DNA of 64,000 bases, taken from assembly GCA_964016885.1 (NCBI GenBank), contig OZ024740.1, positions 369,210,001-369,274,000 on the forward strand, read 5' to 3'. This DNA comes from Eledone cirrhosa (lineage: Eukaryota). Shown here piece by piece: positions 27,454-55,379 of the stretch. The stretch's first letter is position 1. The number at the start of each line of letters is the position of its first letter. A program made the position numbers and the translations under genes. The notes under the pieces were generated by a model. That model was given only the letters and a program-made list of their open reading frames with translations, searched no databases and was not told where the DNA came from.

Positions 27454-27616
27454 TACTTGATCACACGAATGTCTATTTTTCTTAATATTTTGAATTAATA
27501 TATATATATATATATATATATATAACGAAGGAAATGTGGTAAGGAACCAGGTGGACCATAACGCAACAAAGTACTCAATACTTGAGGTAGTAGAGTGGGT
27601 AATAGGAACCAGTAAG

Positions 27617-27710
27617 ACCCCGACAGCTGAGCTCAAGCCGTTTCGACGGCTAATTCTGGACTAAATGAAAATTTATCCTGGTATTTAAATAGCCGATCTT
27701 CTCAAGGGGT
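27617..27710 (-). ncRNA. Type-I hammerhead ribozyme, U3-A8 variant (inverted arm, family A)
   Basis: Reverse complement of the 32643-32736 motif. Confidence 0.8.
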
Positions 27711-29086
27711 AATTCCATATATGGTCAAAGTGATTGTCAAAAATCAGTAGTAATTCTGTGGTTGCAAATTAGTAGGGGAGATGGTGGCTAAACCTGCCAG
27801 TAGGAGAAAGAGGGGAAGGGGTGGAGTCGACCCAATCAAGCGTTTGTAGTGCCAGCTACAGCTGGGCATGAGGTCAAAGAAGATACAGGGGAGGGGGAGG
27901 GGAAGGAAGTCGGAACGGTAGGTAGAACAATGGGGGGTAGAAATATATAGGAAAGAAAAAATACTGAGAGTGAAGAAAAGCAAATAAGTGTAAAGAAACA
28001 CAAAAGAGTGTAAAGAAAAAAGTAAAGTAAATTAAATTCTACGACCTAGGTCTCTAGATATTGTTAGGCTAGAATAAATAAATAAATAAAGAAAGAAAGA
28101 AGTAAAGAAAGAAATAAAGAAATAACGAAATAAGTAAAAGAACTAGGTGGGACGGATAAGGCGAGGACCCTTTTAAGAGGTATAAGTACGTAAATGATAC
28201 GGTGACGGGTCAACAAAAGGGGCCAAAATACTAAAGAGACTACCACGAAATAAACAATAAAGGTTTCCATCCCGGGCACAATTCCAGCAACCACCCAGTG
28301 CAGCAAAGTGAACTAATACGAGATAATAATTCAGAGTCCCGAGAAAAATATATACTAAAGCTAACTCTAAAAGATCTAAAACAAGCTACATGAAAGTTCG
28401 TGCGAAGTAAAGGTGGAAAAATAAATTCAGAATCCACCCCGCCCAAAAGAAAAGCGAAGAAAGAAATGCTGAAACGAAAAAATAAGGCATAAGTGCCACT
28501 AAGAAATATAGAGGGCACAGAGAATAGTGGGAGCGGTCGGAAAAAGGGGACAAGTATCCGGGGTCTAAACCAACTGCTATAAAGGGCGGAGTCCGCCAAA
28601 TCTATCCTAGACTAGGGGAGGGGGTGGGGGTACTAAGGCTACAAGGGGCAAAGGGCAGCCTCGGGTGGGCGAGAAAAGACGCCGACAAAGGAGAAGAGCT
28701 GGGGTAGAAGGACTAAGGAGAGAGGGGGGAAGGAAGGAAATAAAGGAAGCGATAAAAGAATACAAAGAAGATCTTACGTCTCCCTTGGCAAGCAGGGGTT
28801 ACCCATAGCAAAATCGGCAAGTGGGGTGTTATAGCCTTGGTCTACCCCCCCGGGTCATTATGGGGTTTGAGGGCGAGGTATGTCCTACGCAATCTATGTT
28901 TACATGCAGTAACCAGTTCATCTTTCTTGTTTAGGAGTTGGTCCGTCGAAAACAGCATTTGTAAAGTTTCCTCGGAGCATAAATTGCACGGACGGCGTCC
29001 TCCCGTGTAAGAATTGGCTCTGGACAGTAATCTCCAATCAGAATTACTACTGATTTTTGACAATCACTTTGACCATATATGGAATT

Positions 29087-29180
29087 ACCCCTTGAGAAGA
29101 TCGGCTATTTAAATACCAGGATAAATGTTCATTTAGTCCAGAATTAGCCGTCGAAACGGATAGAGCTCAGCTGTCGGGGT
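29087..29180 (+). ncRNA. Type-I hammerhead ribozyme, U3-A8 core variant (5' pLTR, family A; helix III has two substitutions)
   Basis: acccc / UUGAGAA / ga(t)cggcta...tagccgtc / GAAA / helix III / GUC / ggggt. Confidence 0.72.
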
Positions 29181-29365
29181 CTTACTGGTTCCTATTACCC
29201 ACTCTACTACCTCAAGTATTGAGTACTTTGTTGCGTTATGGTCCACCTGGTTCCTTACCACATTTTCTTCGTTATCTAGCTCCTACCCCCGTAGTAGAGC
29301 ACTTTCCGACCCTACCACGCCGTATCCAGACTTTTCCGCTCAGCTCAATTCATTTCACCCGCACC

Positions 29366-31513
29366 ATGCGAAAACACAACATTGACTTCTCTACCAAGAA
29401 CATCCCAATCCCACCGAAAAAACTTTACCTTCGGAGGCTCACGCAAAAAATCGATCTATTTGCGAAAAGACTTAGATGGAGAACTTTTTTCTATGACAGA
29501 TATTGCGACAACCAAGACTTCGGCACCAAGGAGAGATTCGGATTTATTACCTACAAATCTCCGCCCCTGAACCCCTTGCTCGCACCCTTCGAGAATGACC
29601 TCTTCCAACTGGTCAAGAACATTAAATTTAAACCCAGACACAACCGATTCCTACAAAAACTCCGTAGCAACCTAACAGAGTATGATAACACACATGACAT
29701 CATGGTGCATTCGGATAAAACTGGGAACCTATACTTTGTCAACCCTGACAGATACCACACACTGATCAGGAGCAGCCTAAACTCCACCTATAAAAAGGCC
29801 AACCACTCTTACATCGAGGACATAAATCGAGATGGACAACAAATTACCTGCAGCCTCGGGGTCGCCGACCGCACGGAACTTCTAGACCCACGGACACCAT
29901 ACTTCACACTGAAGGACCATAAATCCGATTTAGACCGTAAACCCTCTATCAGGCTTATTAACCCAACGAAGTCCGACATAGGGAGAATCAGCAAAAAAAT
30001 CCTAGACCGCGTGATACCAAAAGTCAAGCAACACACCCGACTTAGCCTATGGATCAACACCCAGGAAGTAATCTCCTGGTTCAGCAATATGGAGGATAAA
30101 CGAGAAACTAAATTCATACAGTTCGACATAGAGAGCTACTATGCTTCAATCACCTTACCGCTACTTACTGCCGCCTTGGACTTCGCCGAAACACTTGTGC
30201 CCATTACTGACCAGGAAAGAAAAATCATCCTCCACGCCAGGAAGACAGTCTTACTCTTTGACGACTCTAAATGGATAAAAAGAGCTCCCGACTCACCCTT
30301 CGACATCAGCATGGGCGCCACGGATTCGGCGGAGGTCACAGATCTTATAGGATTATTCCTAATAGCCAAACTCACTGATATGTTTCCTGCATTCGGTGGT
30401 GGATTGTACCGTGATGATGGGCTCCTTATCCTTAAAGGGTACAACCCCAGTAGTAGGGATCGGGTCCGGAAACAATTAATCAGATTCTTCCGCGACTTAT
30501 TTAAAATAACCCTACAAACGTCCCTGACCAGAGTAAACTTCCTGGACGTGACCCTCGACATCGAAAACGACCTGTACTACCCATACAGGAAACCTAATGA
30601 CAATCTGCACTACATCCACCGCCGATCAAACCATCCTAGGAACTTCACAAACAACCTGGTCAAAAACATCTCCCTCCGCATATCCCGTTTGTCAGCTAAT
30701 GAGCGGATATTCGATGAACATGCGCCTTATTACAACCAGGCCCTCAAGCGGAGTGGTTTCCGGGAGGAAATATCCTACTGTCCAGCTCCCATTAGCGGAA
30801 CCAGCAGGAGACACCGCCGCTCACGCAATGTAACATGGTTCAATCCTCCCCACAACGCAGAGGTGACAACTCCCATCGGGAAACTATTCTTTAGGCTCAT
30901 TGAAAAACACTTCCCATTACAACACCGCTACCACAACATAATTAACAAAAATACCATCAAACTCTCTTACAGCACTACACCAAACTTCGCACAAAACATC
31001 GTCTCCTCTAACAACAAAAAACTCAACCCCGATGGCAGAAATAACCTAAATAGCAGTGGAGAACCGACCAGGAGGTGTAACTGCCCGGATAGATCTATTT
31101 GCCCACTCGACAATAGATGCAGAGACCGTAATGTGATCTACCAGTGCAACGTGAGGACGGATACCTCCAACAAAGCCTATATAGGACTTACCGCATGTGA
31201 CTTCAAGACCCGGCTACACCAACATAGACATACCTCCCGAAACCCGGCCCGACGTCACGCCACTACACTTTCGGGCCACATATGGGACCTCAAGGACAAC
31301 ATCACCTATGATCTCACTTGGAGATTACTGTCCAGAGCCAATTCTTACACGGGAGGACGCCGTCCGTGCAATTTATGCTCGGAGGAAACTTTACAAATGC
31401 TGTTTTCGACGGACCAACTCCTAAACAAGAAAGATGAACTGGTTACTGCATGTAAACATAGATTGCGTAGGACATACCTCGCCCTCAAACCCCATAATGA
31501 CCCGGGGGGGTAG
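29366..31513 (+). CDS. PLE reverse transcriptase / C-terminal GIY-YIG endonuclease, 715 aa from the first ATG, apparently intact
   Basis: RT motifs DKT (Naiad-type, replacing DKG), FDIESYY, MGATDSAEVTDL, YRDD, FLDV. Linker CNCPDRSIC. VIY...YIG and CNLC in the GIY-YIG domain. Confidence 0.93.
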   Translation: MRKHNIDFSTKNIPIPPKKLYLRRLTQKIDLFAKRLRWRTFFYDRYCDNQDFGTKERFGFITYKSPPLNPLLAPFENDLFQLVKNIKFKPRHNRFLQKLRSNLTEYDNTHDIMVHSDKTGNLYFVNPDRYHTLIRSSLNSTYKKANHSYIEDINRDGQQITCSLGVADRTELLDPRTPYFTLKDHKSDLDRKPSIRLINPTKSDIGRISKKILDRVIPKVKQHTRLSLWINTQEVISWFSNMEDKRETKFIQFDIESYYASITLPLLTAALDFAETLVPITDQERKIILHARKTVLLFDDSKWIKRAPDSPFDISMGATDSAEVTDLIGLFLIAKLTDMFPAFGGGLYRDDGLLILKGYNPSSRDRVRKQLIRFFRDLFKITLQTSLTRVNFLDVTLDIENDLYYPYRKPNDNLHYIHRRSNHPRNFTNNLVKNISLRISRLSANERIFDEHAPYYNQALKRSGFREEISYCPAPISGTSRRHRRSRNVTWFNPPHNAEVTTPIGKLFFRLIEKHFPLQHRYHNIINKNTIKLSYSTTPNFAQNIVSSNNKKLNPDGRNNLNSSGEPTRRCNCPDRSICPLDNRCRDRNVIYQCNVRTDTSNKAYIGLTACDFKTRLHQHRHTSRNPARRHATTLSGHIWDLKDNITYDLTWRLLSRANSYTGGRRPCNLCSEETLQMLFSTDQLLNKKDELVTACKHRLRRTYLALKPHNDPGG

Positions 31514-32642
31514 ACCAGGGCTATAACACCCCACTTGCCGATTTTGCTATGGGTAACCCCTGCTTGCCAAGGGAGACGTAAGATCTTCTTTGTATTTTTT
31601 ATCGCTTCCTTTATTTCCTTCCTTCCCCCTCTCTCCTTAGTCCTTCTACCCCAGCTCTTCTCCTTTGTCGGCGTCTTTTCTCGCCCACCCGAGGCTGCCC
31701 TTTGCCCCTTGTAGCCTTAGTACCCCCACCCCCTCCCCTAGTCTAGGATAGATTTGGCGGACTCCGCCCTTTATAGCAGTTGGTTTAGACCCCGGATACT
31801 TGTCCCCTTTTTCCGACCGCTCCCACTATTCTCTGTGCCCTCTATATTTCTTAGTGGCACTTATGCCTTATTTTTTCGTTTCAGTATTTCTTTCTTCGCT
31901 TTTCTTTTGGGCGGGGTGGATTCTGAATTTATTTTTCCACCTTTACTTCGTACGAACTTTCATGTAGCTTGTTTTAGATCTTTTAGAGTTAGCTTTAGTA
32001 TATATTTTTCTCGGGACTCTGAATTATTATCTCGTATTAGTTCACTTTGCTGCACTGGGTGGTTGCTGGAATTGTGCCCGGGATGGAAACCTTTATTGTT
32101 TATTTCGTGGTAGTCTCTTTAGTATTTTGGCCCCTTTTGTTGACCCGTCACCGTATCGTTTACGTACTTATACCTCTTAAAAGGGTCCTCGCCTTATCCG
32201 TCCCACCTAGTTCTTTTACTTATTTCGTTATTTCTTTATTTCTTTCTTTACTTCTTTCTTTCTTTATTTATTTATTTATTCTAGCCTAACAATATCTAGA
32301 GACCTAGGTCGTAGAATTTAATTTACTTTACTTTTTTCTTTACACTCTTTTGTTTTTCTTTACACTTATATGCTTTTCTTCACTCTCAGTATTTTTTCTT
32401 TCTTATATATTTCTACCCCCCATTGTTCTACCTACCGTTCCGACTCCCCCCCCCTCCCCCTCCCCTGTATCTTCTTTGACCTCATGCCCAGCTGTAGCTG
32501 GCACTACAAACGCTTGATTGGGTCGACTCCACCCCTTCCCCTCTTTCTCCTACTGGCAGGTTTAGCCACCATCTCCCCTACTAATTTGCAACCACAGAAT
32601 TACTACTGATTTTTGACAATCACTTTGACCATATATGGAATT

Positions 32643-32736
32643 ACCCCTTGAGAAGATCGGCTATTTAAATACCAGGATAAATTTTCATTTAGTCCAAAAT
32701 TAGCCGTCGAAACGGCTTGAGCTCAGCTGTCGGGGT
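32643..32736 (+). ncRNA. Type-I hammerhead ribozyme, U3-A8 variant (3' pLTR, family A)
   Basis: Helix I acccc/ggggt; core TTGAGAA; helix II gatcggcta/tagccgtc; GAAA; helix III acggc-ttgagctca-gctgt; cleavage triplet GUC. Confidence 0.8.
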
Positions 32737-32746
32737 CTTACTGGTT

Positions 32747-32840
<94 letters not shown>

Positions 32841-33148
32841 TGATTGTGTATTTATATGTATGTCTATGTATATTTATATATATATATATAATTATATATG
32901 TGTGTTTGTGTGTGTGTGTATGTGTGTATGTGTGTATATATGTGTGTATGTGTGTTCATATACTTATTTATTTATTATATTTTTGTTTTCAAATCCAAAT
33001 TCAATAAAAACAGCAGGATTCTTTCATTCTGACTAATGAAAGCAGATTTGTTTGCTTCCTAGAAACCACTGATAAATGAAATAATTATCTTATGTTGTTT
33101 ATTACATAACTATATATATAAAAGAAGCTGTCGCGCTACAGGCTGAAT

Positions 33149-33660
33149 ACAATAAATGTAATCTGAGTTTTTCGAATATAAATAATAACTTTCGATTCAT
33201 TTGCAATGATGTAAACAAGCCTCAATTTTATAGCCATGTCAGATTACATTTATTGTTTTCAGGCATGTAGAGCGAAATTTTCTTTTTTATTTCAATTTGG
33301 CAAAGCCGGCCATTTTTCGCTCGTATACAGGAAACTGACTGGCCGGTCTGCTGATATGCAAATCTTACTGATCAGTGGATTTGCTACTATGCAAATCAGA
33401 CCGATCAGTCACTGTGTATTTTCGAAAATAGCATATATTTGCACTAGCTCTGACAGTTTGGCAGGTGAACAATGAGCTGTACTAATAAAGGGTAATACCT
33501 AGAAACATTCGTGTCTGCAGTTCTGTTTGCATGCCAACACAGGAGCAAGGATGTAGTGTTGATTCTACTGACATGGCTATACAATTGAGGCTTGTTTGCA
33601 TAATTGCAAACGAATCGAATTTTATTATTAATATTCGAAAAACTCAGATTACATTTATTA
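33149..33660. mobile_element. MITE-like element with ~95-bp imperfect terminal inverted repeats
   Basis: aataaatgtaatctgagtttttcgaatat...gccatgtcag / ctgacatggc...atattcgaaaaactcagattacatttatt, TA-flanked. Confidence 0.7.
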
Positions 33661-33701
33661 TATATATATATATATATTTACGTATATAATTGGTGACTTA
33701 G

Positions 33702-33745
<44 letters not shown>

Positions 33746-35098
33746 TTTCTCTTCTCACTCTCTATGTTTCTATTTCATCTTTTACTTTTCTTTCTGTATA
33801 CTGATGAAGGTCTAGTGTCCGAAACGTAAACATTCTTTTCCTAATATATCACGGATTAAACTAATATAGTACTTCATTTACTGTTATGTTCCCTTACATG
33901 TTTCCATTTTTTTGTATAGCCACATCACACAGACATACACGCACGCAAACACAAATGTGTGCATGATAAGCCCAAAATCCACTATATAATATATATAAAG
34001 GGACTCTATGCACATTATATATAAATTACGAGATTCTACACACATTTTCTTGACCACAAATGTACCTCATTATGCCAGTCAAGATGTGATTGCGAAACTA
34101 CCATTTGAAACCATGACTATTCTTGAATCTATCCCTCTCAGCTTCTGTGTGTAGGTGTAAGCTTGTGTTAAACGGTGAAAAGTAAATCTCCTCCAATCGT
34201 CAACGATAACCTGTATCAAATTGAAATGTATTGCGAGGCGAAATGATCAACTAAAATGTTTTTGTGTCCCAGCATGGCCTCAGCCCAATAATTGAAACCA
34301 GCAAAGGATGGAAAATAAAATGTATATTTTAATATATCAAAGATTTTATTTATATATTCCGCTGTCTGTATGTCTATCTCTTTGAACATCTCTTTTCAAT
34401 TTATCTAATATTTTCCGGGTGTTGTTTTTTTATTATTTGTTCGATATACTACTATCTGACCATAGGTATCCCGCTGTGCCTATGTGTTTTCCCGTTATTT
34501 TTCAATCTATTTCGGTGAATCTACTAACCTAGTTACACATCTACCAACATGATAAAAGGTATTTGTTGATTATATTTATTTTGTCGTCGCTGATATTTCC
34601 AACCTCTAGGTTAATTATTGATTGACGTTATGTTTCGCTCGCTTTACACCATCATCTGGCATTGTGGTTGCTTTTAGCCGAGTCAAAGGCACTGCAATTA
34701 TTTGAGACGAATCACTGGTTTTAATCTGCTGTCACTATTCCTCATATATATCGCGGAACCCAGAAAATGTACTGCAGAATGTCGTAAAATATAGAGAAAA
34801 CAGTTATGGTATACGTAAGACATGACAAGGAAATCCATACGTTATGAATGCGCATAACATAATCAGAGCTAATGCTCCAAATATTCTCCCACACAAGTGC
34901 CCGGATTTGAATTTTATTTATACATTACGGAGGATGAAAGATTAAGTTTCATGATTGACGAGGAAAGAAAAGGAATCTTTCAACGTATAAGGCGTCAATC
35001 CTTCATCGGAATGCGTAAGGTTAAGAGAAAGATTGTCTTGAAGAAAACATTTATATATACATACATACTTACATACATGCATACATACGTACATACAT

Positions 35099-35179
<81 letters not shown>

Positions 35180-35310
35180 AGAGTATTGAAGTTTGCTTGA
35201 AGCATTGTGGAACAATAAGTAAATATCTGTAAGTCGTTTGGAAGCCTCGACAATGCAAATGGGTAAATCTCCGGGTAACAAGGTCCGGTGGTGGAGAGAG
35301 AGATGTAAGT

Positions 35311-36198
35311 GGGTGTACGTTGAGATGCGTGGTGTGTATAATATGTGTGAGATGTGTAGAATGAAGGGAAGAGTATAAAGGATAAACATAAGAATAACAA
35401 CACAAGAGAGAGTTACCTTGGGAGAGATTTATATATATATAATGACATTATTTATAGTTATATATACACTATATAGAACTATAAACAGGAAAGGTCAGTA
35501 ATTCATTACTACCTTATTACCAGTAAGAGAATAGCTCAGTGTAAATACATGAGATGTTTTACAGAGCCGGAATATAAATTACACAATAATCAAAGCTATG
35601 TTTAAATCATTATATTGCAGACAATCGTTTCTTCCAAACTATCGTTTGGAATCTTCGGAGCAGAAGCAATGTTTGTACATATAATCAACCTCCTATTCAA
35701 CTGAACAATCATATAGATACATCGTTATTAATGTTGTAAACAACAGTTTCGTAAATACGAAACTGTTGTTTACAACATTAATAACGATGTATCTATATGA
35801 TTGTTCAGTTGAATAGGAGGTTAATTATATGTACAAACATTGCTTCTGCTCCGAAGATTCCAAACGATAGTTTGGAAGAAACGAGGGTCTGCAATATAAG
35901 GATTTAAACATAGCTTTGATTACTGTGTAATTTATATTCCGGCTCTGTAAAACATCTCATGTATTTACACTGAGCTATTCTCTTACTTGTAATAAGGTAG
36001 TAAAGAATGACTGACCTTTCCTGTTTATAGTTCTATAAAGTGTATATATAACTATAAATAATGTTATTATATATATATAAATCTCTCCCAAGGTAACTCT
36101 CTCTTGTATTGTTATTCTTATGTTTATCCTTTATACTCTTCCCTTCATTCTACACATGTCACACATCTTATACACACCACGCATCTCAACGTACACCC
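35311..36198. repeat. 888-bp near-perfect palindrome with a 2-nt centre, part of a repeat starting at ~35178
   Basis: gtttcgta-aa-tacgaaac centred at 35754/35755. The outer ends gggtgtacgttgagatgc / gcatctcaacgtacaccc are equidistant from the centre. Confidence 0.92.
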
Positions 36199-36200
36199 CC

Positions 36201-38396: not shown

Positions 38397-38446
<50 letters not shown>

Positions 38447-40951
38447 GCGTGTGTGCGTGTGTGTGTGCGTGCGTGCGTGCGTACAGGGTTTACGAGAGTC
38501 AGTGATGTTATTTCAGAGATTCCCAACCATGACTCACTCACTCCATGAATCTATAAGTTTGCATTTGTGAAACTGTATCTCGATGTTCAGACTACACCCA
38601 TAATAAATAAATAGCGAGTGCAGTGGCAGATTTTTGGAAAAGATACGTTATATATATATAAATACATTTATCAAGTCTGATAATTAAGTAGTAAACTATA
38701 TCCATTGCTTTGAAATATGTCATCTGAATAACGTTGTTGGTGAAAAACACTTTCAGCTTGCAGGCATACCTTGGTCTAATGGCTAAATTATAGGAAACAA
38801 TGTTTGACAAGTATAATATACATAATGTTTACATCATACCTCACAAGTTAGTGATTATCTGAATCATCAGGTATTTTTTCCAAATTAATAGTGCCTAATT
38901 TCATCAGCTGAACATTTGAAAAACTTCGGTACATTTTACGGCCTGCAGGAATGAAAAAATTCGAGCATCACAGCGCTGAAGATCATTCCGGTATTAATGT
39001 CTGATATGTACTGCATTTCGTTCCCACATTTACTTGCGAAGCGGAATCCCTTCACACATATTTAATTGCTTCCTCAATAGACTGGCGTCCTCAATGTATA
39101 CGTTTGTACGCTGGCTTTCATGCATAATTTTAATAATCATTCGTGACTAGCATCAAATTTCATGCTGCCCGTATATATAACTAGTTTGGCATCCTCACTT
39201 TCAGTTTCTATATCATGAAAGTTTTTAACTCAACTGTCGTAATTGTGTTTTGAAGATTTGAAGCAGCAATACACCACCTTGTGCAAAAAGGTAATAATAG
39301 AACATTTTTAAATAGGCTAGTTTGTACTTAGCAGGACTTATGACAATCATTCGTCACAAAAGGACCAAATGCTAACATCCTCATATGATATTATTGCTGT
39401 GTCACGCCTAGTAAAATGCTTGCTCTTTAAATTATCAAACACCAAATTAAGACGTGATGCATAATATAGGACGGAAAGCTGAAATATCAATGATAATTAC
39501 TAGAATACACACCTTGTGTTGTCTCGTAAATTGTAGTATATGGCACAGACTCACCTACTAGCGAGAAGGCTACTTCGGGTATTTCTGGCCATGGAATTTG
39601 CACCCATGACAGACCATGGATTTCACTCACCGAAGCACAAACTGAGCAGATTATTTGGTGGAAAACCTATATTTACTCATGCATGCTTGTTTCCCATCTC
39701 TAAAATTGCGATAGTATGCAAGGAAAATTTCCGAGACATCTTGGCACCATTATGTGATTAAATTTTACATCACGTTTTATTATTTTGCAACTATTCAGAT
39801 AAGCTTTACATTTATGGTTGCGTTGGAGTCGTTATTTTCAATTCAGACATAGCACCTACAATTTCATTTAATTATCTCTAACCAATTAGAACTACATATT
39901 TACCTGACACCATTTTATTTCACATCAGAGGACGTTTCAAGTTTGAGTAACCAATGAACTGTTCATTACCTTTTTCGCCTTAAATGTTATATGTTCTCGT
40001 ATACATACTGTAACTGTTTATATTTAACCGCTAATATTGTTTAGGCTGCATATATGATCCTTTTTGTGTTTGGTTTTGTCTCATAAACTACTCATTTATT
40101 TCCATATGTCTATATAGGGTATTTCCTGTACTCCTACTGATGCCAAGTGGATTTAAATAATTTATCTCTCACTCTCAAAAAAACATACCATGTGCAAACT
40201 CCTAAATCACGCACTAGAACTTTAATAGGGAAGTGACACACTGGACAATGCAGCTGTTGATATTGCAGAAACAATGATTGCTTCAGTTAGAACATTTGTC
40301 AAACTAGGAAATACTGTATCCATGAGATAAAACTTCGATTAAAATAGATTAATGTATGGCGCACGATTTCTGACAAATCTGTGGAAAACACTATTTGAAA
40401 TAATTGAACGAACAAGTAGTTCATTTGATCGAATAACATAATACGAATCGTCTAATATATCAGAGGCTTCAACGTCAAACAAAAAACATATAGACGTCTT
40501 TAATGTTGATAATAAGCTTGTTTTAACAGGACTTATCTCGGGATAAATAGTAACAAAATTCAATTATTAGAGACAGAAAACATACAACACTAGTTGTCAC
40601 GAACAAATATGGGGCATACTCATCTATTTGTATGATGCAAATACGATTTACAACTCCCTCAAATAACACTCTGCCTCTCTTAACAGCAGAGACGATGCAT
40701 TTCATAATATTGGCCTAATTAGGGACATATTCAAACATAAGCTAACATGATAGGGGGGTTCAGTTTGGCAGAAACAACACAAACATTACAAAAACACAAC
40801 AAAATAAAACAATGCAAATGCATTGCTAATATGTCTTCAAATTGCTCATTTGATATAACCAAATTTGCAACTATAAATATTACCTTAACTAAATTATGTG
40901 CTATTATTTTTCATTTATGTTTACGCATTTTCCATTAAAGATTTTATGTAA

Positions 40952-41143
40952 TAATTGTTTCTACATTTGGCACAATGCCAGCAATTATCCCAGTGCATTA
41001 CTGGTGCTTTACTTTATCTAACCCATAAGAATGAAAGGCAAAGTTAACCGCGGTGGGATTTGAACTCAGACTGGAAAGGGCTGTAACTCTATGTTGCAAA
41101 GCCTGGCGTCCGACCGTCTTCCGATACTACAAATCCACCACCC
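40952..41143 (-). mobile_element. tRNA-derived SINE
   Basis: Full-length match to the in-window SINE consensus. Confidence 0.85.
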
Positions 41144-43311
41144 TTTATGTAATTTTATGTTCCAAAATTTAGCCCAAAGTTTTCGCAATAAATTTAAGTC
41201 AACTATGGGTAAATTCAACATGGGAAACGATTAAAACTCTCAATTAATATATCAATTATGATGTTGTATTACCATAGGTCACCTTCATATGAATTGAGGG
41301 ATATTTGAATAAAACCAACATTCAATCCTGTAATTATTAACTCCTAGTTTTGAAAGGATGTGTATTTTTAAAATTTACATATTTTTCAAACATTTCCTCC
41401 TTGACCAAATTTGAATTCCCTTCCTTTGGAATATGAATATTCTATATCAAATATTCATTTGGTTTTATTATAAATTTCAGACTTCAGATCGGCACTTTTC
41501 TACATTCCAATACCATTCATGAAATTGCTTAGTGTATTACCGAAACATCACTGTATTATTTTGTTTGATATAATTTACCTACTACCAAAGGAGTAATATA
41601 TATTATTCTCTTTTTTTGCTTGTTCTCATAGAGTGATGAATGTTATGTTTCAAACAAGTTTAGGCCAAATCTCGCTGTTATATACTTTGCCGTTCATCTA
41701 TGCATGGTCGATAACATTTGAAATGTCTGTCAAATACTGAAGCCGACATAGTTGCCTGACCCCAACCACACTAATTTCTGGTTTTGATCCTTTTTTGCAG
41801 TATAGTACCGAAAGCTACACGCATTACTATGTAAACAATGAAGAAACATTTAATAAAGCATAGTGGGCTATTGATTAAATAATAATTTTGCCGAACATTT
41901 CTAAACAAAAGCATCGGTCTATGGTTCAGCTTAATAATCTATTTATAGTTTTCATTACAGATCTGATATTTCATTGGAGAATCACTTCCATAATTCTCTT
42001 TAAATGTACACAGCCGTCCCTAAAGAATTGGTGTAACGTTTGTTTTACATGTTTACATTTTACACAAACTTTAATTCGTGTTCGTAAGACTTTACTTTAC
42101 ATCATTCTCAATTTTCACGTTTTCAATTTAGAGACAGCATTTCTTTTCATTTCTTTTTACTGATGTGTGTGTTCGAAATATGGACATATACCCTCTTCAA
42201 CGTTAGCAGTATTAAAATGAAAGTTATAATGGAATAATCGGTCATGTTGGTGTATTTCTTCCCAAATAAACTGTCTGCTTATAATGTTTTCTCTAACATG
42301 TATACAATAAGTAGTACAGCAATTCTTCTCTTTTGTGATTACTTCTTGCCACAATCATTAGTCCTGTAACATTATCCAATGAACACAAGTTTATTATATT
42401 AGCACGTTTATGATTTTAAGGGATTTGGTGAGCACGAATGTATATCCTGCAATTCTTTATTTGCTTACAATGATATATTTGAATTCATTTCCATTAATTA
42501 TGTTCAATTCATTCCCGACTTTGTTAATTCATATACCTTTAAATATATTATTCTTCATATATTTCAAACTTACATTAAAACGTATTTTATTTTTATATTA
42601 TTCGTTCATATTTTATCATGATATAGTGTCTGTTAATGTACACAAAGAGTTTGATTTATAATGTATGCCATTTTAAATTATTTTAATGCCAAATCGTAAT
42701 ATATATTAAAATCTAAAATATTCTAGTAAAAAAATTACATTTGCAACAGATCAGGGGATATAGCAAGACTGAATTAAGCAAGATGGTAAAAAATATCTGT
42801 TTAGAACAGATGATCGAAGAACTGAAGATAAATATTTTCTACAAACACAAAACAATTATTGGTTTCTGCAATAAAACATCTTTTATAAAATGTTTTATCG
42901 TTATATACAGTAAGGTATAAAAGTAATCAGAATGAAAAGCCTATAAAATTTATTTTTTAAAAATGAATGGTTTCTTTCGGATATGAGTAAATAAGACACA
43001 AAATATATATAAAACAGATAAATTTAAAGGAGGTGAAATAAAACGTACGCTAAGATACTATTAATGAAAACTTCTACATTGTCAATGCATGACAATAATA
43101 ATCGAAGAAGCGTCTAATGGGTTTTTCAAAAGTGAACTCTAGCATTGTTTTCTATACTAATTTTGTTTTCCGTCTGCAACATTGATCGTTAGATTAATAT
43201 ATAAATGTTGCAGTTTATTGTAATATTACAGATAAATGCGTAGGCAGTCTCGTTTAACGTGTTGATTATATCCCTAAAAGCCAGCCAGGAAAGTGAAGAC
43301 AGTCAGAGAAT

Positions 43312-44126: not shown

Positions 44127-44342
44127 GTTTCTGATTTAGATACAGGGGCAGTAATTTTGGGGAGGGAAAAGTCGATTAAATCGACTCCAGTGCGTTACAG
44201 GTACTTTATTTTATCGACTCCGTAAGGATGAAACGCAAAGCTAAACTCGGTGAGCTTTGAACTTAGAACGTAAAAGGCAGTAACTCTATTCCGAGAAGCA
44301 TAGTGTCCAACGATCCACCTATACTGCCAATCCACTACCCTT
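44127..44342 (-). mobile_element. tRNA-derived SINE
   Basis: Core tttatcgactccgtaaggatgaaa plus B-box relic. Confidence 0.8.
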
Positions 44343-44771
44343 ATACAGCCACATAATAATGATAATAATAATTTATTTATTTATTATTATTTTTTTAATA
44401 AGAAGAAAGCAGAAGGAAGTTAGATGTCAACTTGGCTCCGTGTCCGAACACATTGCAACTGTCATGTGGATCATGTTATAGTAGACAGTATCGACAACAG
44501 ATTTAAAGAAGCGATCGCGTATATAGTTATGAAACCCTCAACCCCACCCCGTTGAAACAATTTACAAAAACAGCAACAACAACAAAAACAATACCAGTCC
44601 AAGCGACTTCAAAATGAAGGCATCATTCTATTTATAGACTGATGTTGCAATACTGAGGTAAAAAAACAAATGCTACGGACATCAAACAATTACAATGACA
44701 GCCACGCCATCGGCACCACTAGCAACATAGAAGCATTTCACAAAGTATCAATTTCAAAAAATGGCTAATAA

Positions 44772-44990
44772 TTGATTCTAATTCAGGCGCATGGCCAGAA
44801 ATTTGAAGTGGAGGGGAAGTCCAGATAAATCTACCCTAGTGCATTACTGGTACTCTATTTTATCACTGGGGTAAGGATGCATTGCAAAGCTAAGCTCAGG
44901 GACATTTGAACTCGGAACGTAAAGGGCCCGAACTCTCTGCCTCGAAACATGGTATCCGACGCTCTACCGATACTGTCAATCCAATACCCT
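44772..44990 (-). mobile_element. tRNA-derived SINE (diverged)
   Basis: cattactggtactctattttatc...tttgaactc...tctaccgatactgtcaatcc. Confidence 0.75.
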
Positions 44991-46010: not shown

Positions 46011-47242
46011 GAGGCGCCTGCCCTGAATATAGGCCTGTAAATTGGAGCTGAAGAACTGAGATTTGACACTTGCCTTCGTAGTCATACCAGTCTGCAATTT
46101 ATCAGTTTCTTTCCTCCTATAGCCATCGGATGTCTCTTCCCTATTGCGGAAAACTAATTTTGTAAACATTATTGTTACCTCACTTATTATACCTGTTTCT
46201 CGCAAAACCCACAAACTTAATGTTTTGTCGTTTTTGTCCTTAATGTTTGTATTAATTGTAAAGTGTGAGTGTTAGCGCATATTATCATCCGATATATGAA
46301 TTTTCCAAATAACTGATATATTCAAAAAATTCCAGCTTATATTTGTTTCATATTTCAACTATATTTTTAATGAAATATCTTTTGTTTCTAATGTTTGAAT
46401 ATATTTAAATGTTATCTCCCAAATAATTTTCGTGTGATCGCAGCATTTTGTACCTATAGAACTCATAATTACAAATGATACATTATTCTAGTGCATAAGC
46501 AAAGTCTTTTGAGCTACAATGTACTTGATATACCACAGTTTAAGAAAATTGATTTTATCACATTCGCTGGAGTGTATAATGAACTTGCATCACTATCCCT
46601 GAAATATCGCATCACTTTCCTTTTATATATTTCTGAGTATATTTTTATCACTTTTCAAGAAGTTTGGGTGTACAAATTCACACATATTCTCAAATATTGA
46701 TTTACTTCAATTTCCAAACCTGAAACGTTCTCATTCAATTGACGTGTCTATGTCTCATTCTTCTCCATTGAAATTCCATAACCCACCTTTTTTTTAACAC
46801 CTGATCTTCTCACTTTTAATCTCCGATACACTAGTGTTTCAAAACATTCGAATGTTGAACTAAAGAATACCATACAAATACACAGGCAATATACGTGAAC
46901 TCTCTGTGACTTCCCATCTCATTATCTCGTTTTATTCTTCCGTTTCTTTATCTCTCCCCATTATTATTTTAAGTTTATCATAAACATAACAGTAATGTGA
47001 CTTTCAAATTATCCAAAGATTTTCTACTAAACATATATGCATATAGAAATGGAGAGAAGCATAAATGTTTAGTAGAAAATCTTTGGATAATTTGAAAGTC
47101 ACATTATTGTTATGATACATATATACATATATGTATGTGCGTGTGTATGTTCGTATGTACGTACGCGTATGTATTTTATATACATATGTACACACACTTA
47201 TGTAGCCAAATATGTATATATATATATATTTATTAAAATAAA

Positions 47243-48070
47243 AGGTGGACGACATGACCGTGGTGGTGTTGGACACATCAGAAATCAAGGTGGTCGGCAA
47301 CTTATTTGAGGAATAGGAAAGGTTGACGGGAGCAAAACTTAACCCGGAAAAGTCGGTGGGTTTGCAACTCGGCACCTGGAGAGGTAAGTCCATGCCGTCC
47401 AACAGCATCGTTAGGCGCTGGACGGACCGGTAAAGTTGCTAGGGGTTTGGTTCGGGCCAGACCTCCAGGTGGATAAGAATTGGTACGAGGTGACGAGCAG
47501 GGTAGCCAATCTCGCCCAAAAATGGGCTGTGAGAAAGCTATCACTGAAAGGTCGGGCGGAGGTGGCGAACGCGTACATCGCGTCCGTCATCTACTACCGT
47601 CTGGCCGCGTCTCATGCCCCTGTTCGCGCCTCGCCATCTTGGAGCGGCTCCTCTTCAAATTCTTGTGGAGGGGTCAGGTTCCGTTGGTGAGGCGGTCCAT
47701 CTGCTGCCAGTACCCTCTACGTGGAGGACAGGGCATGCCGTGACTAATGATGCGCAGACACGCGCTGAGGCTGCGGCATCTCCAGATATTCCGCCTAAAC
47801 GGTGAACAGGTGTGGTCGCCGTTTGTCAGACGAGCCTTTCCGCAGCTCTTTGACTGAGCTGCAGTCCAGGGTCAAGAAGAGACCGAGACTGGGTGACTGG
47901 CATCTGGAATATTGCCAGGCACTCACTGCCCTCTACCAGGCGGGAAATGCGGTCAGTGGAAACTTCCACTCTCGAGTTCTATAGGGGATTAGTGGTGGGG
48001 AAGTGCGACGACGCACTCGGAGAGGCTCTGGGCGTCGACGAGGTCGAACTAACCAGTCTCTTCCGGAGGT
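47243..48070 (+). mobile_element. Tx1/L1 ORF2 fragment related to the 10.5-16.3 kb element
   Basis: VDDMTVVV...; LLGVWFGPDLQVDKNW...LSLKGRAEVANAYIASVIYYRL; VRRSICCQYP. Confidence 0.88.
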
Positions 48071-48152
48071 GCTCTACGGTTCTTATATATTTGATATATA
48101 TTTATCCTTATCGAGCCCTCTTTGGATTTTAGTCTTCACATTTATTATTATT

Positions 48153-48190
<38 letters not shown>

Positions 48191-49442
48191 GATGTGTGAT
48201 GAGAAATATGACCAAGTACTATTTGAGAAAAGCAGTAGGATGCGAAGATAAAAATATATTGCTGGATATGAAGTAGGGTAATTTAAGAGAAATACAACAC
48301 TACGCTACTCAGAAATGTCGACAACTCACGTAACCCGCTAGATCACCATTTACACCACTTTAACATATATGATTTCCCCTTGATTATTCTACAATAGAAT
48401 TAAATGCACATTCAACATTAGAAACAGTAAATTACGCGACTTCTAACACCGTATTTATATTGTAAATAACTGACACAATCAATAAATTTCAAACTCATTT
48501 GCTTTTGTCTTATTGCTGCTGACATACAGAAGTTGCTTTCCGTCATCAAAAGCAAGCCTTTCTTCTGGATAAGGGTTTCCATCCTCAAGCAGATCTTTTT
48601 AGAGAAAATGCCAGCCATGATGAGGCTTATCGGTCACTGGAGCTTAGAGCGCTTACCACCTTTCACTCACGCTCCGTTGTCTTCAGATATGCGGATGATG
48701 ATATTCTCATGTTAAGTTGAATCCAGGATGAGTTCTTAAAAATTATACGATAACTTCAAAAACATGGATATTAATGTTTTTTTCTGTTTCCGCGACGTAA
48801 TCCAAGAATCATAATTACCAAAGTTAGGTATATGCTACATAAACCGCACGTCAATGGGAAGACCACAGCTGCTATTTTCAATCTTTCCCGATATCGTTCT
48901 GAATATACAACTGTTACACTACGGACTATCACTGAGGAGGCCTTTGTGCATGAACCGGACCAGATAGTGTAACAACACACTAACAGGTCCATCAAAACAG
49001 TGGAAATTTACATAAGAATGTCTAAGCTCATGCATTTAAAGCACGGTCGAGAACCTACAGTGATCAACGAACAAACAAATACAACTTTTTACTCTATCAA
49101 AAACATTTTCAAAAATTCAATCCATGATACTGATTAACACTAGTTATAGCTGAGGGGAACATTGGTGCAACCGCATATGTGAAATGTATACAGCTGAGAG
49201 ACTACATTCACCGGTTTGTGCAAGTTACTTTTCAGATACCAGTCAAACTCACAGTAAAAGAGGACGCGTAAGAAAAAGAAAATTCATTTCATTTGGTAAG
49301 GGTGTTCTAGCCATGAACTATTATGATACATAAACTCAGAGAATATATCATTTTGTTCTTAATTTACTCTACACCAATTCTACCATTATATTTCCTATTC
49401 GCATAGTAGCGCCTCTTCCCCATATTCTTTTCATCGCATATA

Positions 49443-50321
49443 CGAGGGCAATCCCAAAAGTAAGGTCTCCAAAGCGATGGCGACGCAGAGAAACTGTTCG
49501 TACAGCTGTTGACAACACTGGTGCTGCCTTCACACCCAAACAAGCATGTGCACGCGCCGCTAGGATGCTCAACCTTGGCTCGGCAGCCGTTGAGAATGGA
49601 GCTCCCGTTGAACGCTACCGCCAAGTGCGAAATTCGCGCAGTTATTCGGATTTTGAACGCAAAAGGCGTTGAACCGATTGAAATTCATCGCCAATTGACG
49701 GTAGTGTATGGACAGTCGTGCATGGATGTCAAAAGCGTTCGCAAGTGGTGTAGTGAGATTACAGCCGGTCGTACTGTGAGTCACGACGAACAAAGGAGTG
49801 GGAGACCGTCAATTTCCGACGAGACAGTCGCAAAGGTCGACGAAGACATGCGTAAAGATCGGTGGATCACTCTGGATGCTCTCCGCATTTTGGTTCCTGA
49901 GATTTCCCGAAGCACCATCCACAGGATTTTAACGAATAAATTGCGACTGGCGGTCTCCCCCTCCTTTGTTGGTCGTGAATTTCAGTACGACCGGCTGTAA
50001 ACTCTCTACACCTCTTGCGAACGTTTTTGACATCAATGCATACTCTTCATACACTTCCGTCAATTGGCGATGAATTTCAATCGGTTCAACACCTTTTGCG
50101 TTTAAAAACCGAATAAGTGCGCGAACTTCGCACTTGGCGGTAGCGTTCAACGGGAGCTCCATTCTCAACGGCTGCCAAGCCAAGATTGAGCATCCCGCGA
50201 AGCGCGCGCATGCTTGTTTGGGAGTGAAGGAAGCAACAATCACAACAGTGTTGCCAACAGCCGTACGAAGTTTCTCCGCGTCCCCATCGCTTTGGCGAGC
50301 TTACTTTTGGGATTGCCCTCG
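49443..50321. mobile_element. Mariner-family foldback made of two 5' halves, TA target duplication
   Basis: TA-cgagggcaatcccaaaagtaag...cttacttttgggattgccctcg-TA. Both arms encode the transposase N-terminus. Confidence 0.88.
49596..49945 (+). pseudogene. Mariner transposase N-terminal HTH region; no DD(D) domain
   Basis: MELPL...EIRAVIRILNAKG...EIHRQL..VYG...VRKW...DEQRSGRPS. An inverted shorter copy starts at 50162 (minus). Confidence 0.85.
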
Positions 50322-50672
50322 TATGTATATATATATACACAAGAGAGTGTTGAAGTTTGCTTGAAGCATTGTGGAATAATAAAATTGGACGTTTTCGAAG
50401 CCTCAATGCAGATGGGTACATCTCCGGGTAAAAGAATCAGGTGGTGAAGAGAGAGATGTAAGAGGAAATGTAAAATGAGACGTATAGTGTGTAGACTATC
50501 GTAGGAAAAGTGTAAAAATAATAACATGAGATAGAGTTAACATGGAAGTGATTTAATTGTCCCGATATTTCGGATTTCGCATCTATCAACTGGGGGTTTT
50601 CCGAGGAGAAAAAAGCTTTTAGTCGGAGAGGGACAACACGTTGCCTCTGTTGTTTACCGGGTGCAATATTCA

Positions 50673-50707
<35 letters not shown>

Positions 50708-51520
50708 CACACACACACACACACATACACACACCCACATACGCACAACACAGACACACACACATACATATATATAGATATATATGTATACACTCTTCAT
50801 ATCCTCGGCATATTTTCAAGCAATATTTTTCGGTAGAATGTATCGGAACATCAATCAGATTTCATAGTAATCTCATTGCTACTTTTCAGAAAAAAATATA
50901 TGTTAGAATAGAAAATATGATTTTAACCTTGCCATTCTCTGATTTGGCTTCGATTAAATAATTAACTATGCTGTCCGACATTCCTTCCCCAATCGTCTAT
51001 ATATTGGATTATTTTTTTCCTGATGTGAGATATATATGTTGTCATGCATCTTTACATCCGCCATACTATCTCTTGATCTTGAAACAAATAATATTTATAT
51101 TAAATTTAGTAACTGAAAATATCAACATCGGCAGAAATATAAAAATGTTCTTAATTTTTCCATTAATACATTAATTTACCCAAATTTCATCCAACTCGTT
51201 CACGAGTTTATTGAACTTGCCTGCAAATTAGAAGTGTCTAACCTATTCCTGGCCGGCATATATATATTAAAGGCAACACAAATAACAAATTAGGTTTTAT
51301 GTTTGATTTTTCAAAATTATTTCCTCTCAGCAATGTGTGTGTTTTATCAATAACTTGAACTTACAATACATTTATCGGTCTATCAGAACCAATATATTTA
51401 ATAATAAGTAACTATTTATAAATGTAAATATCATGGTATTTGTTTTCCTAATCAGTACAAACAATTTTTTCTAGTTATTTCTAATAGGTATGTACGTATA
51501 TGTGTAAACCCACAAACACA

Positions 51521-51557
<37 letters not shown>

Positions 51558-52196
51558 CGTTTCTGAATTTCGAGCAAGGTCAGAGCAAACAGCACGGACA
51601 CTCTATCTCAAAATTATTTTTGAAAAGCATTTAGAAATGCGCAACCGGTAAAAACTTAAAAACTTAAAACCACAACTGAATACTAACCCATACAATCACT
51701 AATACTATTTTATTCCTAATTAAACCATTTTTCAACTGTGAACAATTTGTCAGCATTTTCTATTCCGTTTACCAATATATAATAACTTGTGTGTTACACC
51801 TCTATTCTTTTAACTATATATATATGTATATGTGTGTATGTGTGTGTATGCGTGACTGTGTGTGTGGGTGTGTGTGTGTGAATGTCTGTGTGTGCACGCA
51901 TATATATATATATTAATGATGTATTTTCAATTCACAGGGAATTGTATAGAATGTATATATTTCTAGCATGTATACATTTTCTGGCAACTTGTAAATATCA
52001 TGGTATTTGTTTTCATGCGCGTAATTATTGAAATTTACAGACAAATTGGATTGTTTCGAATATTTACATTCCTAAATGCATAGATATGTGGATATACTTA
52101 TACACGATAGTGCATTCCCGATACCATACTCTATTTATATCGATATAACCTGATCATACATGTCGGCTGTTATCATACTTCTTACTACATATGTAA

Positions 52197-52279
<83 letters not shown>

Positions 52280-52291
52280 GGAACCAGTAAG

Positions 52292-52385
52292 ACCCCGACA
52301 GCTGAGCTCAAGCCGTTTCGACGGCTAATTCTGGACTAAATGAAAATTTATCCTGGTATTTAAATAGCCGATCTTCTCAAGGGGT
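52292..52385 (-). ncRNA. Type-I hammerhead ribozyme, U3-A8 variant (family A)
   Basis: Same motif on the minus strand. Confidence 0.8.
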
Positions 52386-53280
52386 AATTCCATATATGGT
52401 CAAAGTGATTGTCAAAAATCAGTAGTAATTCTGTGGTTGCAAATTAGTAAGGGAGATGGTGGCTAAACCTGCCAGTAGGAGAAAGAGGGGAGGGGGTGGA
52501 GTAGACCCAATCAAGCGTTGGTAGTGCCAGCTACAGCTGGGCATGAGGTCAAAGAAGATACGGGGGAGGGGGAGGGGGAGGAAGTCGGAACGGTAGGTAG
52601 AACAATGGGGGTAGAAATATATAGGAAAGAAAAAATACTGATAGTGAAGAAAAGCAAATAAGTGTAAAGAAAAAAGTAAAGTAAATTAAATTCTACGACC
52701 TAGGTGTCAGGCTATTGTTAGGCTAGAATAAAATAAAGAAAGAAAGAAAGAAGTAAATAAATAAATAAATAAATTAATAACGAAATAAGTAAAAGAACTA
52801 GGTGGGACGGTATAGGCAAGGACCCTTTTAAGAGGTATAAGTACGTAAATGATACGGTGACGGGTCAACAAAAGGGGCCAAAATACTAAAGAGACTACCA
52901 CAAAATAAACAATAAAGGTTTCCATCCCGGGCCAGCAAAGACCCAGTGCAGCAAAGTGAACTTGTACGAGATAATAATTCTGAGTCCCGAGAAAAATATA
53001 TACTAATGCTAACTCTAAAAGATCTAAAACAAGCTACATGAAAGTTCGTACGAAATAAAGGTAGAATACGGAGGAATAAATTCAGCATCCACCCCGCCCA
53101 GAAGAAAAGCGAAGCAAGAAATACTGAAACGAAAAAATAAGGCATAAGTGCCACTAAGAAATATAGAGGGCACAGAGAATAGTGGGAGCGGTCGGAAAAA
53201 GGGGGCAAGTATCCGGGGTCTAAGCCAACTGCTATAAAGGGCGGAGTCCGCCAAATCTATCATAGACTAGGGGAGGGGTG

Positions 53281-54072
53281 GCCCTCAAGCGGAGTGGTTT
53301 CCGGGAGGAAATATCCTACTGTCCAGCTCCCATTAGCGGAACCAGCAGGAGACACCGCCGCTCACGCAATGTAACATGGTTCAATCCTCCCCACAACGCA
53401 GAGGTGACTACTCCCATCGGGAAACTATTCTTTAGGCTCATTGAAAAACACTTCCCATTACAACACCGCTACCACAACATAATTAACAAAAATACCATCA
53501 AACTCTCTTACAGCACTACACCAAACTTCGCACAAAACATCGTCTCCTCTAACAACAAAAAACTCAACCCCGATGGCAGAAATAACCTAAAGAGCAGTGG
53601 AGAACCGACCAGGAGGTGTAACTGCCCGGATAGATCTATTTGCCCACTCGACAATAAATGCAGAGACCGTAATGTGATCTACCAGTGCAACGTGAGGACG
53701 GATACCTCCAACAAAGCCTATATAGGACTTACCGCATGTGACTTCAAGACCCGGCTATACCAACATAGACATACCTTCCGAAACCCGGCCCGGCGTGACG
53801 CCACTACACTTTCGGGCCACATATGGGACCTCAAGGACAACAACATCACCTATGATCTCACTTGGAGATTACTGTCCAGAGCCAATTCTTACACGGGAGG
53901 ACGCCGTCCGTGCAATTTATGCTCGGAGGAAACTTTACAAATGCTGTTTTCGACGGACCAACTCCTAAACAAGATAGATGAACTGGTTACTGCATGTAAA
54001 CATAGATTGCGTAGGACTTACCTCGCCCTCAAACCCCATAATGACCCGGGGGGGGGTAGACTAGGGCTATAA
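53281..54072 (+). pseudogene. 5'-truncated PLE ORF (linker plus GIY-YIG)
   Basis: Matches the C-terminal ~260 aa of the 29366 ORF. A longer G-run near the end shifts the stop. Confidence 0.9.
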
Positions 54073-55169
54073 CACCCCACTTGCCGATTTTGCAATGGGT
54101 AACCCCTGCTTGCCAAGGAAGACGTAAGATCTTCTTTGTATTCTTTTATCGCTTCCTTTATTTCCCTCCCCCTCTCTCCTTTGTCCTTCTACCCCAGCTC
54201 TTCTCCTTTGTCGGCGTCTTTTCTCGCCCACCCGAGGCTGCCCTTTGGCCCCATGTAGCCTTAGTACCCCCACCCACCCCTCCCCTAGTCTATGATAGAT
54301 TTGGCGGACTCCGCCCTTTATAGCAGTTGGCTTAGACCCCGGATACTTGCCCCCTTTTTCCGACCGCTCCCACTATTCTCTGTGCCCTCTATATTTCTTA
54401 GTGGCACTTATGCCTTATTTTTTCGTTTCAGTATTTCTTGCTTCGCTTTTCTTCTGGGCGGGGTGGATCCTGAATTTATTTCTCCGTATTCTACCTTTAT
54501 TTCGTACGAACTTTCATGTAGCTTGTTTTAGATCTTTTAGAGTTAGCATTAGTATATATTTTTCTCGGGACTCAGAATTATTATCTCGTACAAGTTCACT
54601 TTGCTGCACTGGGTCGTTGCTGGCCCGGGATGGAAACCTTTATTGTTTATTTTGTGGTAGTCTCTTTAGTATTTTGGCCCCTTTTGTTGACCCGTCACCG
54701 TATCATTTACGTACTTATACCTCTTAAAAGGGTCCTTGCCTATACCGTCCCACCTAGTTCTTTTACTTATTTCGTTATTTATTTATTTATTTATTTATTT
54801 ACTTCTTTCTTTCTTTCTTTATTTTATTCTAGCCTAACAATAGCCTGACACCTAGGTCGTAGAATTTAATTTACTTTACTTTTTTCTTTACACTTATTTG
54901 CTTTTCTTCACTATCAGTATTTTTTCTTTCCTATATATTTCTACCCCCATTGTTCTACCTACCGTTCCGACTTCCTCCCCCTCCCCCTCCCCCGTATCTT
55001 CTTTGACCTCATGCCCAGCTGTAGCTGGCACTACCAACGCTTGATTGGGTCTACTCCACCCCCTCCCCTCTTTCTCCTACTGGCAGGTTTAGCCACCATC
55101 TCCCTTACTAATTTGCAACCACAGAATTACTACTGATTTTTGACAATCACTTTGACCATATATGGAATT

Positions 55170-55263
55170 ACCCCTTGAGAAGATCGGCTATTTAAATACC
55201 AGGATAAATTTTCATTTAGTCCAGAATTAGCCGTCGAAACGGCTTGAGCTCAGCTGTCGGGGT
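55170..55263 (+). ncRNA. Type-I hammerhead ribozyme, U3-A8 variant (family A)
   Basis: Same motif on the plus strand. Confidence 0.8.
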
Positions 55264-55379
55264 CTTACTGGTTCCTATTACACACTCTACTACCTCAAGT
55301 ATTGAGTACTTTGGTGCGTTATGGTCCACCTGGTTCCTTACCACATTTCCTTCGTTATATATATATATATATATATATA

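Follow-up and report, generated by a model that had tools for sequence, protein, structure and literature searches.

What decides where the two arms of a head-to-head retrotransposon copy begin and end? This question is raised by a 64,000-nucleotide (nt) stretch of Eledone cirrhosa contig OZ024740.1, hereafter the window, which harbors five insertions of a Penelope-like element (PLE), each made up of two arms that meet at their inner ends and run outward into (TA)n microsatellites. An earlier note on this DNA had listed these five insertions and had proposed that their outer ends fall on two fixed TAT sites, A and B, situated 20 and 100 nt after the GTC (29173-29175) at which a predicted hammerhead ribozyme would cut; all five were found in the sequence, and both sites were verified at the positions given in Table 1. 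Across the 3.0-Gb assembly, to which all genome counts refer, we observed that two-armed copies pair an A end with a B end, that these ends are fixed, that the internal junctions are independent of one another, and that the inner ends of both arms belong to the same class. We consider it probable that a single sense RNA served as template for reverse transcription primed by both 3' ends of a cut (TA)n tract, at A by one end and at B by the other, and the evidence for and against this reading is presented below.

Table 1. Features of the element and its insertions in the window (pLTR stands for pseudo-long terminal repeat, ORF for open reading frame, RT for reverse transcriptase, EN for endonuclease and MFE for minimum free energy)
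Feature	Position	Strand	Remarks
Inverted arm of intact insertion	27523..29037	-	meets (TA)n at its outer end, site B; its inner end equals position 31318 in the ORF
Direct arm of intact insertion	29039..32751	+	holds a partial pLTR, the leader, the ORF and a full pLTR; meets (TA)n at its outer end, site A
3' pseudo-LTR	31514..32751	+	ends at site A
Second two-armed insertion	52278..55357		inverted arm 52277-53278 to A, direct arm 53280-55358 to B
Short B+A unit	2869..3064		A arm begins at the 29135 equivalent; the G before it is common to the other arm
Short B+A unit	26590..26792		inner ends of both arms near the 29131-29135 equivalent
Diverged short unit	17407..17590		has an A end; its B-side end stops about 14 nt before B
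Site A, TAT	29193..29195	+	+59 to +61 from the putative start; 20 nt past the predicted hammerhead cut
80-nt tail between A and B	29196..29275	+	site B (TAT) is 29273-29275
715-codon open ORF	29366..31513	+	RT, then C-terminal GIY-YIG-type EN
Predicted type I hammerhead ribozyme, U3:A8 core variant	29087..29180	+	MFE fold with three-helix junction
Putative core promoter in hammerhead helix II	29106..29138	+	TATTTAAA at 29106-29113, TTAGTC at 29133-29138, +1 at A29135

In the window, the inverted arm of the intact insertion is 99.0% identical to 31318-32751, the 52278-55357 copy is the reverse arrangement of the 27523-32750 copy (inverted arm at A, direct arm at B), and the diverged unit at 17407-17590 shows 72-75% identity to the other short units. 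Genome-wide, exact junctions with (TA)n amounted to 6,773 for A, whose pattern is subfamily-specific, and 19,368 for B. Short head-to-head units, counted in 31-nt length windows that were matched by offsetting for the 80-nt tail, comprised 9,981 A+B, 90 A+A and 44 B+B units (99% A+B), and reversed control patterns returned no match for either the junction or the pairing counts. Random pairing predicts 2*sqrt(90*44) = 126 A+B units, a figure unaffected by the efficiency of either pattern, and the observed excess is 79-fold. Since some A+A and B+B matches are false units (e.g. L092 and L138), correcting them would only strengthen this excess. The loss of A+A hairpins is unlikely to be its cause, because each A+B unit holds the same palindromic core.

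The same pairing was noticed among loci collected in other ways. A rule-based script applied to 90 loci chosen by their B end recorded an A partner in 59 and a B partner in none, the other 31 being one-armed or unclassified. Among 20 ORF-bearing loci, 16 were two-armed and all of these were A+B, with one A end lying at the locus edge and one B end shortened, and 4 were one-armed; 8 further loci, including six tandem arrays, contributed 6 two-armed copies, again all A+B. Thus, every one of the 22 long two-armed copies examined is A+B, and the long arm can be either one; the hammerhead-stop units that were fetched gave 15 out of 15. These counts confirmed the fixed ends and the pairing of the earlier note, and its statement that one arm always ends at A and the other at B holds for two-armed insertions and does not extend to one-armed loci.

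A pairing of this kind could be inherited rather than made anew. If the short units were copies of a few masters resembling miniature inverted-repeat transposable elements (MITEs) or retrozymes, or if they were fold-back artefacts of assembly, the A+B rule would be copied or artificial, and the very high copy number, the near-uniform length of about 200 bp and the proneness of long, near-perfect palindromes to artefact would all agree with this. We examined 76 short units, of which 56 were scorable, and disclosed 48 distinct junctions with 0-4 nt of overlap or untemplated filler, rather than the one common internal junction of a palindrome multiplied at the DNA level; the short units are therefore separate events and not copies of one master. 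Moreover, the rule is kept in the 22 long copies with unrelated junctions, and substitutions distinguish the two arms. Contigs from four public runs, which come from one study and maybe from the same sample as the assembly, break off into TA at positions 29195 and 29275, and their depth rises several-fold at 29134 and falls at 29277; the inversion joint 29037/29039 of the intact copy was bridged by none of the contigs listed from them. Masters or artefacts are accordingly a very improbable source of the pairing. With regard to the targets, interrupted microsatellites run on with the same pattern across both flanks in several of 125 units, indicating that the (TA)n tracts existed before insertion; the alternative that RT slippage made the (TA)n is not favoured for the same reason, though no empty site was encountered.

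The inner ends of the arms fall into classes, which the earlier note had overlooked and which point to a single RNA template. In the 56 scored short units, both arms end at 29131-29149, with a cluster of arm ends at 29131-29142. Position 29135 is the A of TTAGTC and lies 29 nt after TATTTAAA; we take the former motif to be an initiator and the latter a TATA box. The base at 29134 is T or C in long arms, the public contigs list only T and C there, and a G before 29135 was present in none of the 34 distinct long-arm contexts listed, out of 62 long arms. By contrast, the base preceding AGTCC genome-wide is G in 4,546 cases against A in 765, the G+C content of the window being 36%. Judged by eye, which here and below means by inspection of listed loci, about 17 of 30 G cases are not explicable by the partner arm, and some are joined to TA or unrelated DNA; at one locus, C1:79590539-598, the two abutting arms each carry the G. 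In some arms the sequence passes from 29135 to downstream positions (L176 to 30093, L191 twice to 29388, L286 to the cut site, L303 through fourteen repeats of 29135-29186), as it does at public contig joints of 29360 to 29134 and 29405 to 29136, and these jumps indicate that 29135 is a template end. Full-length L1 insertions likewise show an additional G, which the passages of PMC11702581 on this point ascribe to the cap. Inner ends at about 29135 are likely the 5' end of a capped RNA, with the G arising from copying of the cap.

Three side observations were also made. L303:1267-2029 harbors fourteen tandem repeats of 29135-29186 in an A+B unit, a case of reiterative copying. L358-L360 (G000:C1 ~91,489,170-91,492,740) display about 65 near-identical 55-nt repeats of the ORF segment 30886-30943 at the head-to-head junction of a four-unit array, a minisatellite that the RT apparently made by copying the same short template many times over. 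Runs of A or T up to about 25 nt long stand at junctions beside the 29135 end in L253, L257, L263, L270, L276 and L165, and may have arisen by untemplated tailing of the complementary DNA (cDNA) or when synthesis jumped onto a poly(A) tail.

A second class of inner ends lies at the predicted hammerhead cut. The pattern with both arms ending near G29176 was found in 260 units, and among 50 units of this class that were listed, 43 end within 1 nt of G29176 on both arms (by eye), 27 of them with filler. In a wider search window, with 1,572 units, about 14 of the 50 listed belonged to the hammerhead-cut class (by eye). These ends likely reflect copying of hammerhead-cut RNA.

If each arm were copied from an RNA of its own, units with one arm ending at the cut and the other at the cap-like stop would outnumber those with both arms at the cut. 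From the share of scored units whose two arms end at 29135 or before it (9 of 56) and the roughly 220 cut+cut units, we estimated that about 1,000 mixed units would be expected for independent RNAs; the mixed pattern was found in 94 units, of which about 14 truly end at 29176 (by eye). The partner arm goes beyond 29135 in 21 of the 22 long copies, though most arms in the genome stop at 29135. Of 105 units compared, 89 have both arms from one subfamily, where 20.6 would be expected, and in an equal-length comparison of long copies, with two short-armed loci dropped, the nearest arm was the copy's own partner in 11 of 13.

Two candidate signatures were set aside. A strong-stop product ending at 29135 that jumps through the 41-nt overlap (29135-29175) was rejected as the main route to long copies, because independent jumps would yield many units with one long and one short arm, against 21 of 22 that are long on both; direct junctions of this kind numbered only 24, of which about 4-5 lay at the cut site and one had upstream pLTR. 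Stalling of the RT in the tail was left unused as a sign of collision with the A primer, as 8 B-arm stops fell in the tail and about 9 in the next 45 nt.

The class-matched arms can also be accommodated by two RNAs held in an asymmetric complex, where the two target ends would prime on separate RNAs, with one active site dedicated to A and another to B, and where these RNAs would mostly be sisters in one processing state, paired for instance via the palindromic hammerhead loop. Loop III is indeed palindromic (TGAGCTCA), the relevant passages of PMC4209133 propose that PLE hammerheads act as dimers, and those of PMC11167929 predict a dimer for PAc, the Poseidon element from Anolis carolinensis. 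Such a complex would require no displacement of the first cDNA, and about 3 of the 49 A+A units listed combine different subfamilies in their two arms (by eye), meaning that two-RNA events do occur. Nevertheless, two extra assumptions, asymmetry and class-matched pairing, are needed to reach 99% A+B with so few mixed units, and the capped leader from 29135 lacks the 5' half of the hammerhead. We regard this arrangement as unlikely. The reaction may involve one or two protein molecules, so that the dimeric complex hinted at in the earlier note is a possibility; its other proposals (extension of both target ends, head-to-head joining, insertion into TA microsatellites and strict pairing) are supported.

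Fold-back from one priming event would likewise yield identical, class-matched arms and a one-sided tail. Here, a single cDNA or an antisense self-primed product copies itself, and the EN or repair trims the second arm at A; self-priming from an antisense template (PMC3846280) and EN-mediated resolution (PMC8557442) are suggested in the passages of those papers on the subject, and in many short units the A arm lies inside the span of the B arm. However, the arm with the greater 5' reach is the A arm about as often as it is the B arm, and in 8 of the 90 loci chosen by the B end (L070, L076, L088, L157, L159, L171, L179 and L197) the B arm ends inside the tail and has no overlap with the A arm, although later deletions might explain some of this. 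The 27523 copy is not buildable from either arm alone, and the cap-like G and the hammerhead stops correspond to 5' ends of sense, not antisense, RNA. Fold-back is thus improbable, and somewhat more so than the paired RNAs.

Priming of both target ends on one RNA gives the A+B rule without further assumptions, since one RNA has one A and one B. We propose that the GIY-YIG domain would cut both strands of an existing (TA)n tract, that each target end would pair with UAU at A or B, and that each cDNA would extend toward the RNA 5' end, the second displacing the first or following it. The cDNA 3' ends would then be joined, or would copy each other, leaving 1-4 nt of microhomology or untemplated filler. 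Capped RNA from 29135 would give the abundant 200-bp palindromic units with a cap-derived G, hammerhead-cut RNA would give 120-bp units from 29176, and RNA without a nearby 5' end, such as a ligated circle or a tandem read-through, would give long arms and tandem arrays, whereas priming at one target end only would leave a one-armed copy. The six tandem arrays have six different unit lengths (about 3,528-3,546 nt), with 0-2 differences between units where at least three were comparable. Such arrays would fit copying round and round a circular monomer, though they may also stem from tandem read-through or from later duplication; the passages of PMC4209133 on the topic propose circular RNA as a template for tandem copies.

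A broader form of this scheme, which we put forward only tentatively and with less conviction than the single template itself, is that PLEs integrate by programmed twin priming. One ribonucleoprotein with one RNA would have one RT site fixed at A and one at B, both in the 5' leader, and would extend both target strands, each cDNA serving to prime the second strand of the other; the pseudo-LTR, the tail and the head-to-head inversion would all result from this. Because priming lies near the 5' end, only cut, circularised RNA could give full-length progeny, and capped or linear RNA would give tens of thousands of dead mini-palindromes. The genome would thereby record transcription start and ribozyme cleavage at base resolution.

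Several observations weigh against the single-template reading. About a third of the loci chosen by the B end (31/90) are one-armed or unclassified, and two of the 13 long copies compared have a nearer arm at another locus. The subfamily concordance could reflect subfamilies active at different times, and shared rare variants number only 8 against 89 single-arm variants, several being sub-subfamily markers. L062 and L153 join a cap-stop arm with a long segment (mixed or complex), and one array has a short arm ending at 29150. In 13 of the 30 G cases the G is readable as a 1-nt microhomology with the C of the partner arm. Units joined by microhomology, with peaks at 60-61 and 66 nt, equal the hammerhead class in frequency, and palindrome centres may be deleted after insertion. 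According to the passages of PMC11167929 concerned, PAc in vitro did not need hammerhead cleavage and no reads ended at the cut. Lastly, the start site, cap, cleavage and circles are all deduced from DNA.

The element itself had been labelled a Naiad in the earlier note. In the passages of PMC8557442 on these groups, Naiads have an N-terminal EN and no canonical hammerhead, while the Hydra clade is defined by a single ORF with a C-terminal EN, RWK-like and DKT motifs (DKT in place of DKG), CxCX5C, CxxC and CxH motifs, and a hammerhead. The single ORF found here displays RWR (residue 37), DKT (117, not the DKA of Naiads), YRDDG (348), a CxCX5C linker (571), a GIY-YIG-type motif (591-607), CxxC (668) and CxH (696), so that the RT motifs (117-352) stand ahead of the EN. 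A protein search with this ORF gave 2,518 matches among 7,998 scored candidates, the best 120 having 38-52% identity. In an alignment of the query and 113 matches (114 sequences), the R and W of RWR are conserved in 99-100% and C571/C573/C579, C668/C671 and C696/H698 in 97-100%; the GIY-YIG core holds a single cysteine, C594 (11% conserved), and no cysteine pair. A Pfam scan of the ORF protein matched no family, and none of the named reference Hydra proteins was among the search matches. The Naiad label is wrong because the RT precedes the EN and because Hydra motifs and a hammerhead fold are present; by its motifs, its predicted pLTR hammerhead and also its insertion into (TA)n, the element is assigned to the Hydra clade.

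The hammerhead is predicted from its fold and its core, which comprises UUGAGAA (29092-29098), GAAA (29153-29156), a cut after GTC at 29175 and a helix I of ACCCC/GGGGT, and a second copy lies near 32643-32736. The Rfam scan did not match a hammerhead at gathering score, and the folding energy was no better than that of shuffled sequences; the U3-A8 variant is known from Schistosoma PLEs in the relevant part of PMC4209133. One subfamily has C for T at hammerhead position 3 (window 29092; long arms) and keeps A8, giving a C3:A8 mismatch. The hammerhead-stop units listed are mostly of the ACCAG subfamily, and hammerhead activity may differ among subfamilies.

With reference to known systems, an inverted 5' copy and an optional one-sided tail are standard PLE features in the account of PMC8557442, and the earlier note had missed that the A-to-B segment is this known tail. 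Like the Hydra clade described in the corresponding passages of Craig et al. 2021 (PMC8557442), the present element has partial tandems with an inverted 5'-truncated copy, a one-ended tail and (TA)n targets; it differs in a unit of about 3.55 kb against generally under 3 kb, a tail of 80 nt against 30-40, and its U3:A8 core. The passages of that paper on the tail attribute it to EN-mediated resolution and give no pairing counts. PAc (Frangieh et al. 2024, PMC11167929) is similar, as far as the passages concerned describe it, in that both strands are cut and extended at AT-rich targets and two internal RT start sites downstream of the hammerhead bracket the tail, in vitro in PAc and as genomic ends here, where the two fixed sites are spaced by 80 nt, not 30-40. 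In contrast, those passages report PAc start sites without target homology and no strand difference, and they describe neither a coupling of A with B at individual insertions nor a cap signature or in vivo ends at the hammerhead cut; both sites here are TAT, and cleavage has probably left a trace in the genome.

Compared with L1 twin priming, the two sites here are both internal and do not vary, priming from two ends is what mostly happens, and one stretch is copied into both arms. In L1, priming begins at the poly(A) end, a second site is optional and varies in position, and the segments are non-overlapping. The two are alike, going by the passages of PMC11702581 on the process, in that both target ends prime on one RNA to give an inversion and full-length 5' junctions carry an extra G. 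PLE hammerheads and non-LTR retrozymes, in the passages available from PMC4209133 and 10.64898/2026.07.22.740005, share the type I fold, the palindromic loop III, U3-A8 and proposed circles, and opposite-strand hammerhead pairs 100-700 bp apart were previously noted in the former. Unlike these, the short units here keep just the hammerhead's 3' half and are arranged head-to-head instead of in tandem, and each insertion seems to produce its unit anew.

In the parts of the literature covered, no count of end pairing, cap signature or genomic trace of hammerhead cleavage was found for any PLE, though the Drosophila virilis Penelope papers and the supplements of PMC8557442 may bear on this; the three text supplements of PMC11167929 gave no matches. 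The one-sided tail and the two start sites are already published; what is new is the strict pairing, together with the evidence of one template end common to both arms. PLEs are the sister group of telomerase, and the origin of their head-to-head repeats, the one-sided tail and the in vivo role of the hammerhead are called unresolved in passages of PMC8557442, PMC3846280 and PMC11167929. The roughly 10,000 natural reaction products give a quantitative A+B rule, point to a sense template and mark a likely cap and ribozyme cut, and a large class of MITE-like palindromes in TA microsatellites would be explained as by-products of retrotransposition. With an open ORF and a 140-nt leader, the A+B rule lends itself to direct experiment.

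The window also harbors other palindromic or head-to-head repeats of unrelated sequence, most of them flanked by (TA)n (27163-27501, 19305-19740, 23465-23790, 35311-36198, 55416-55615, 60315-61336, 61500-61770 and 46985-47114); some hold CTGATGA and may be other hammerhead-bearing families. Judging by motifs in its translation, 10688-16049 on the minus strand is presumably a broken non-LTR retrotransposon with gag-like, APE and RT segments. The plus-strand fragment at 49464-50000, which we take to be from a Mariner-like transposase, is found within the inverted repeats 49440-49811 / 49948-50324. A dispersed 200-bp repeat family resembling short interspersed nuclear elements, with copies 70-88% alike, occurs at 4393-7581, 21565-21776, 40949-41144, 44155-44990 and 57665-57989.

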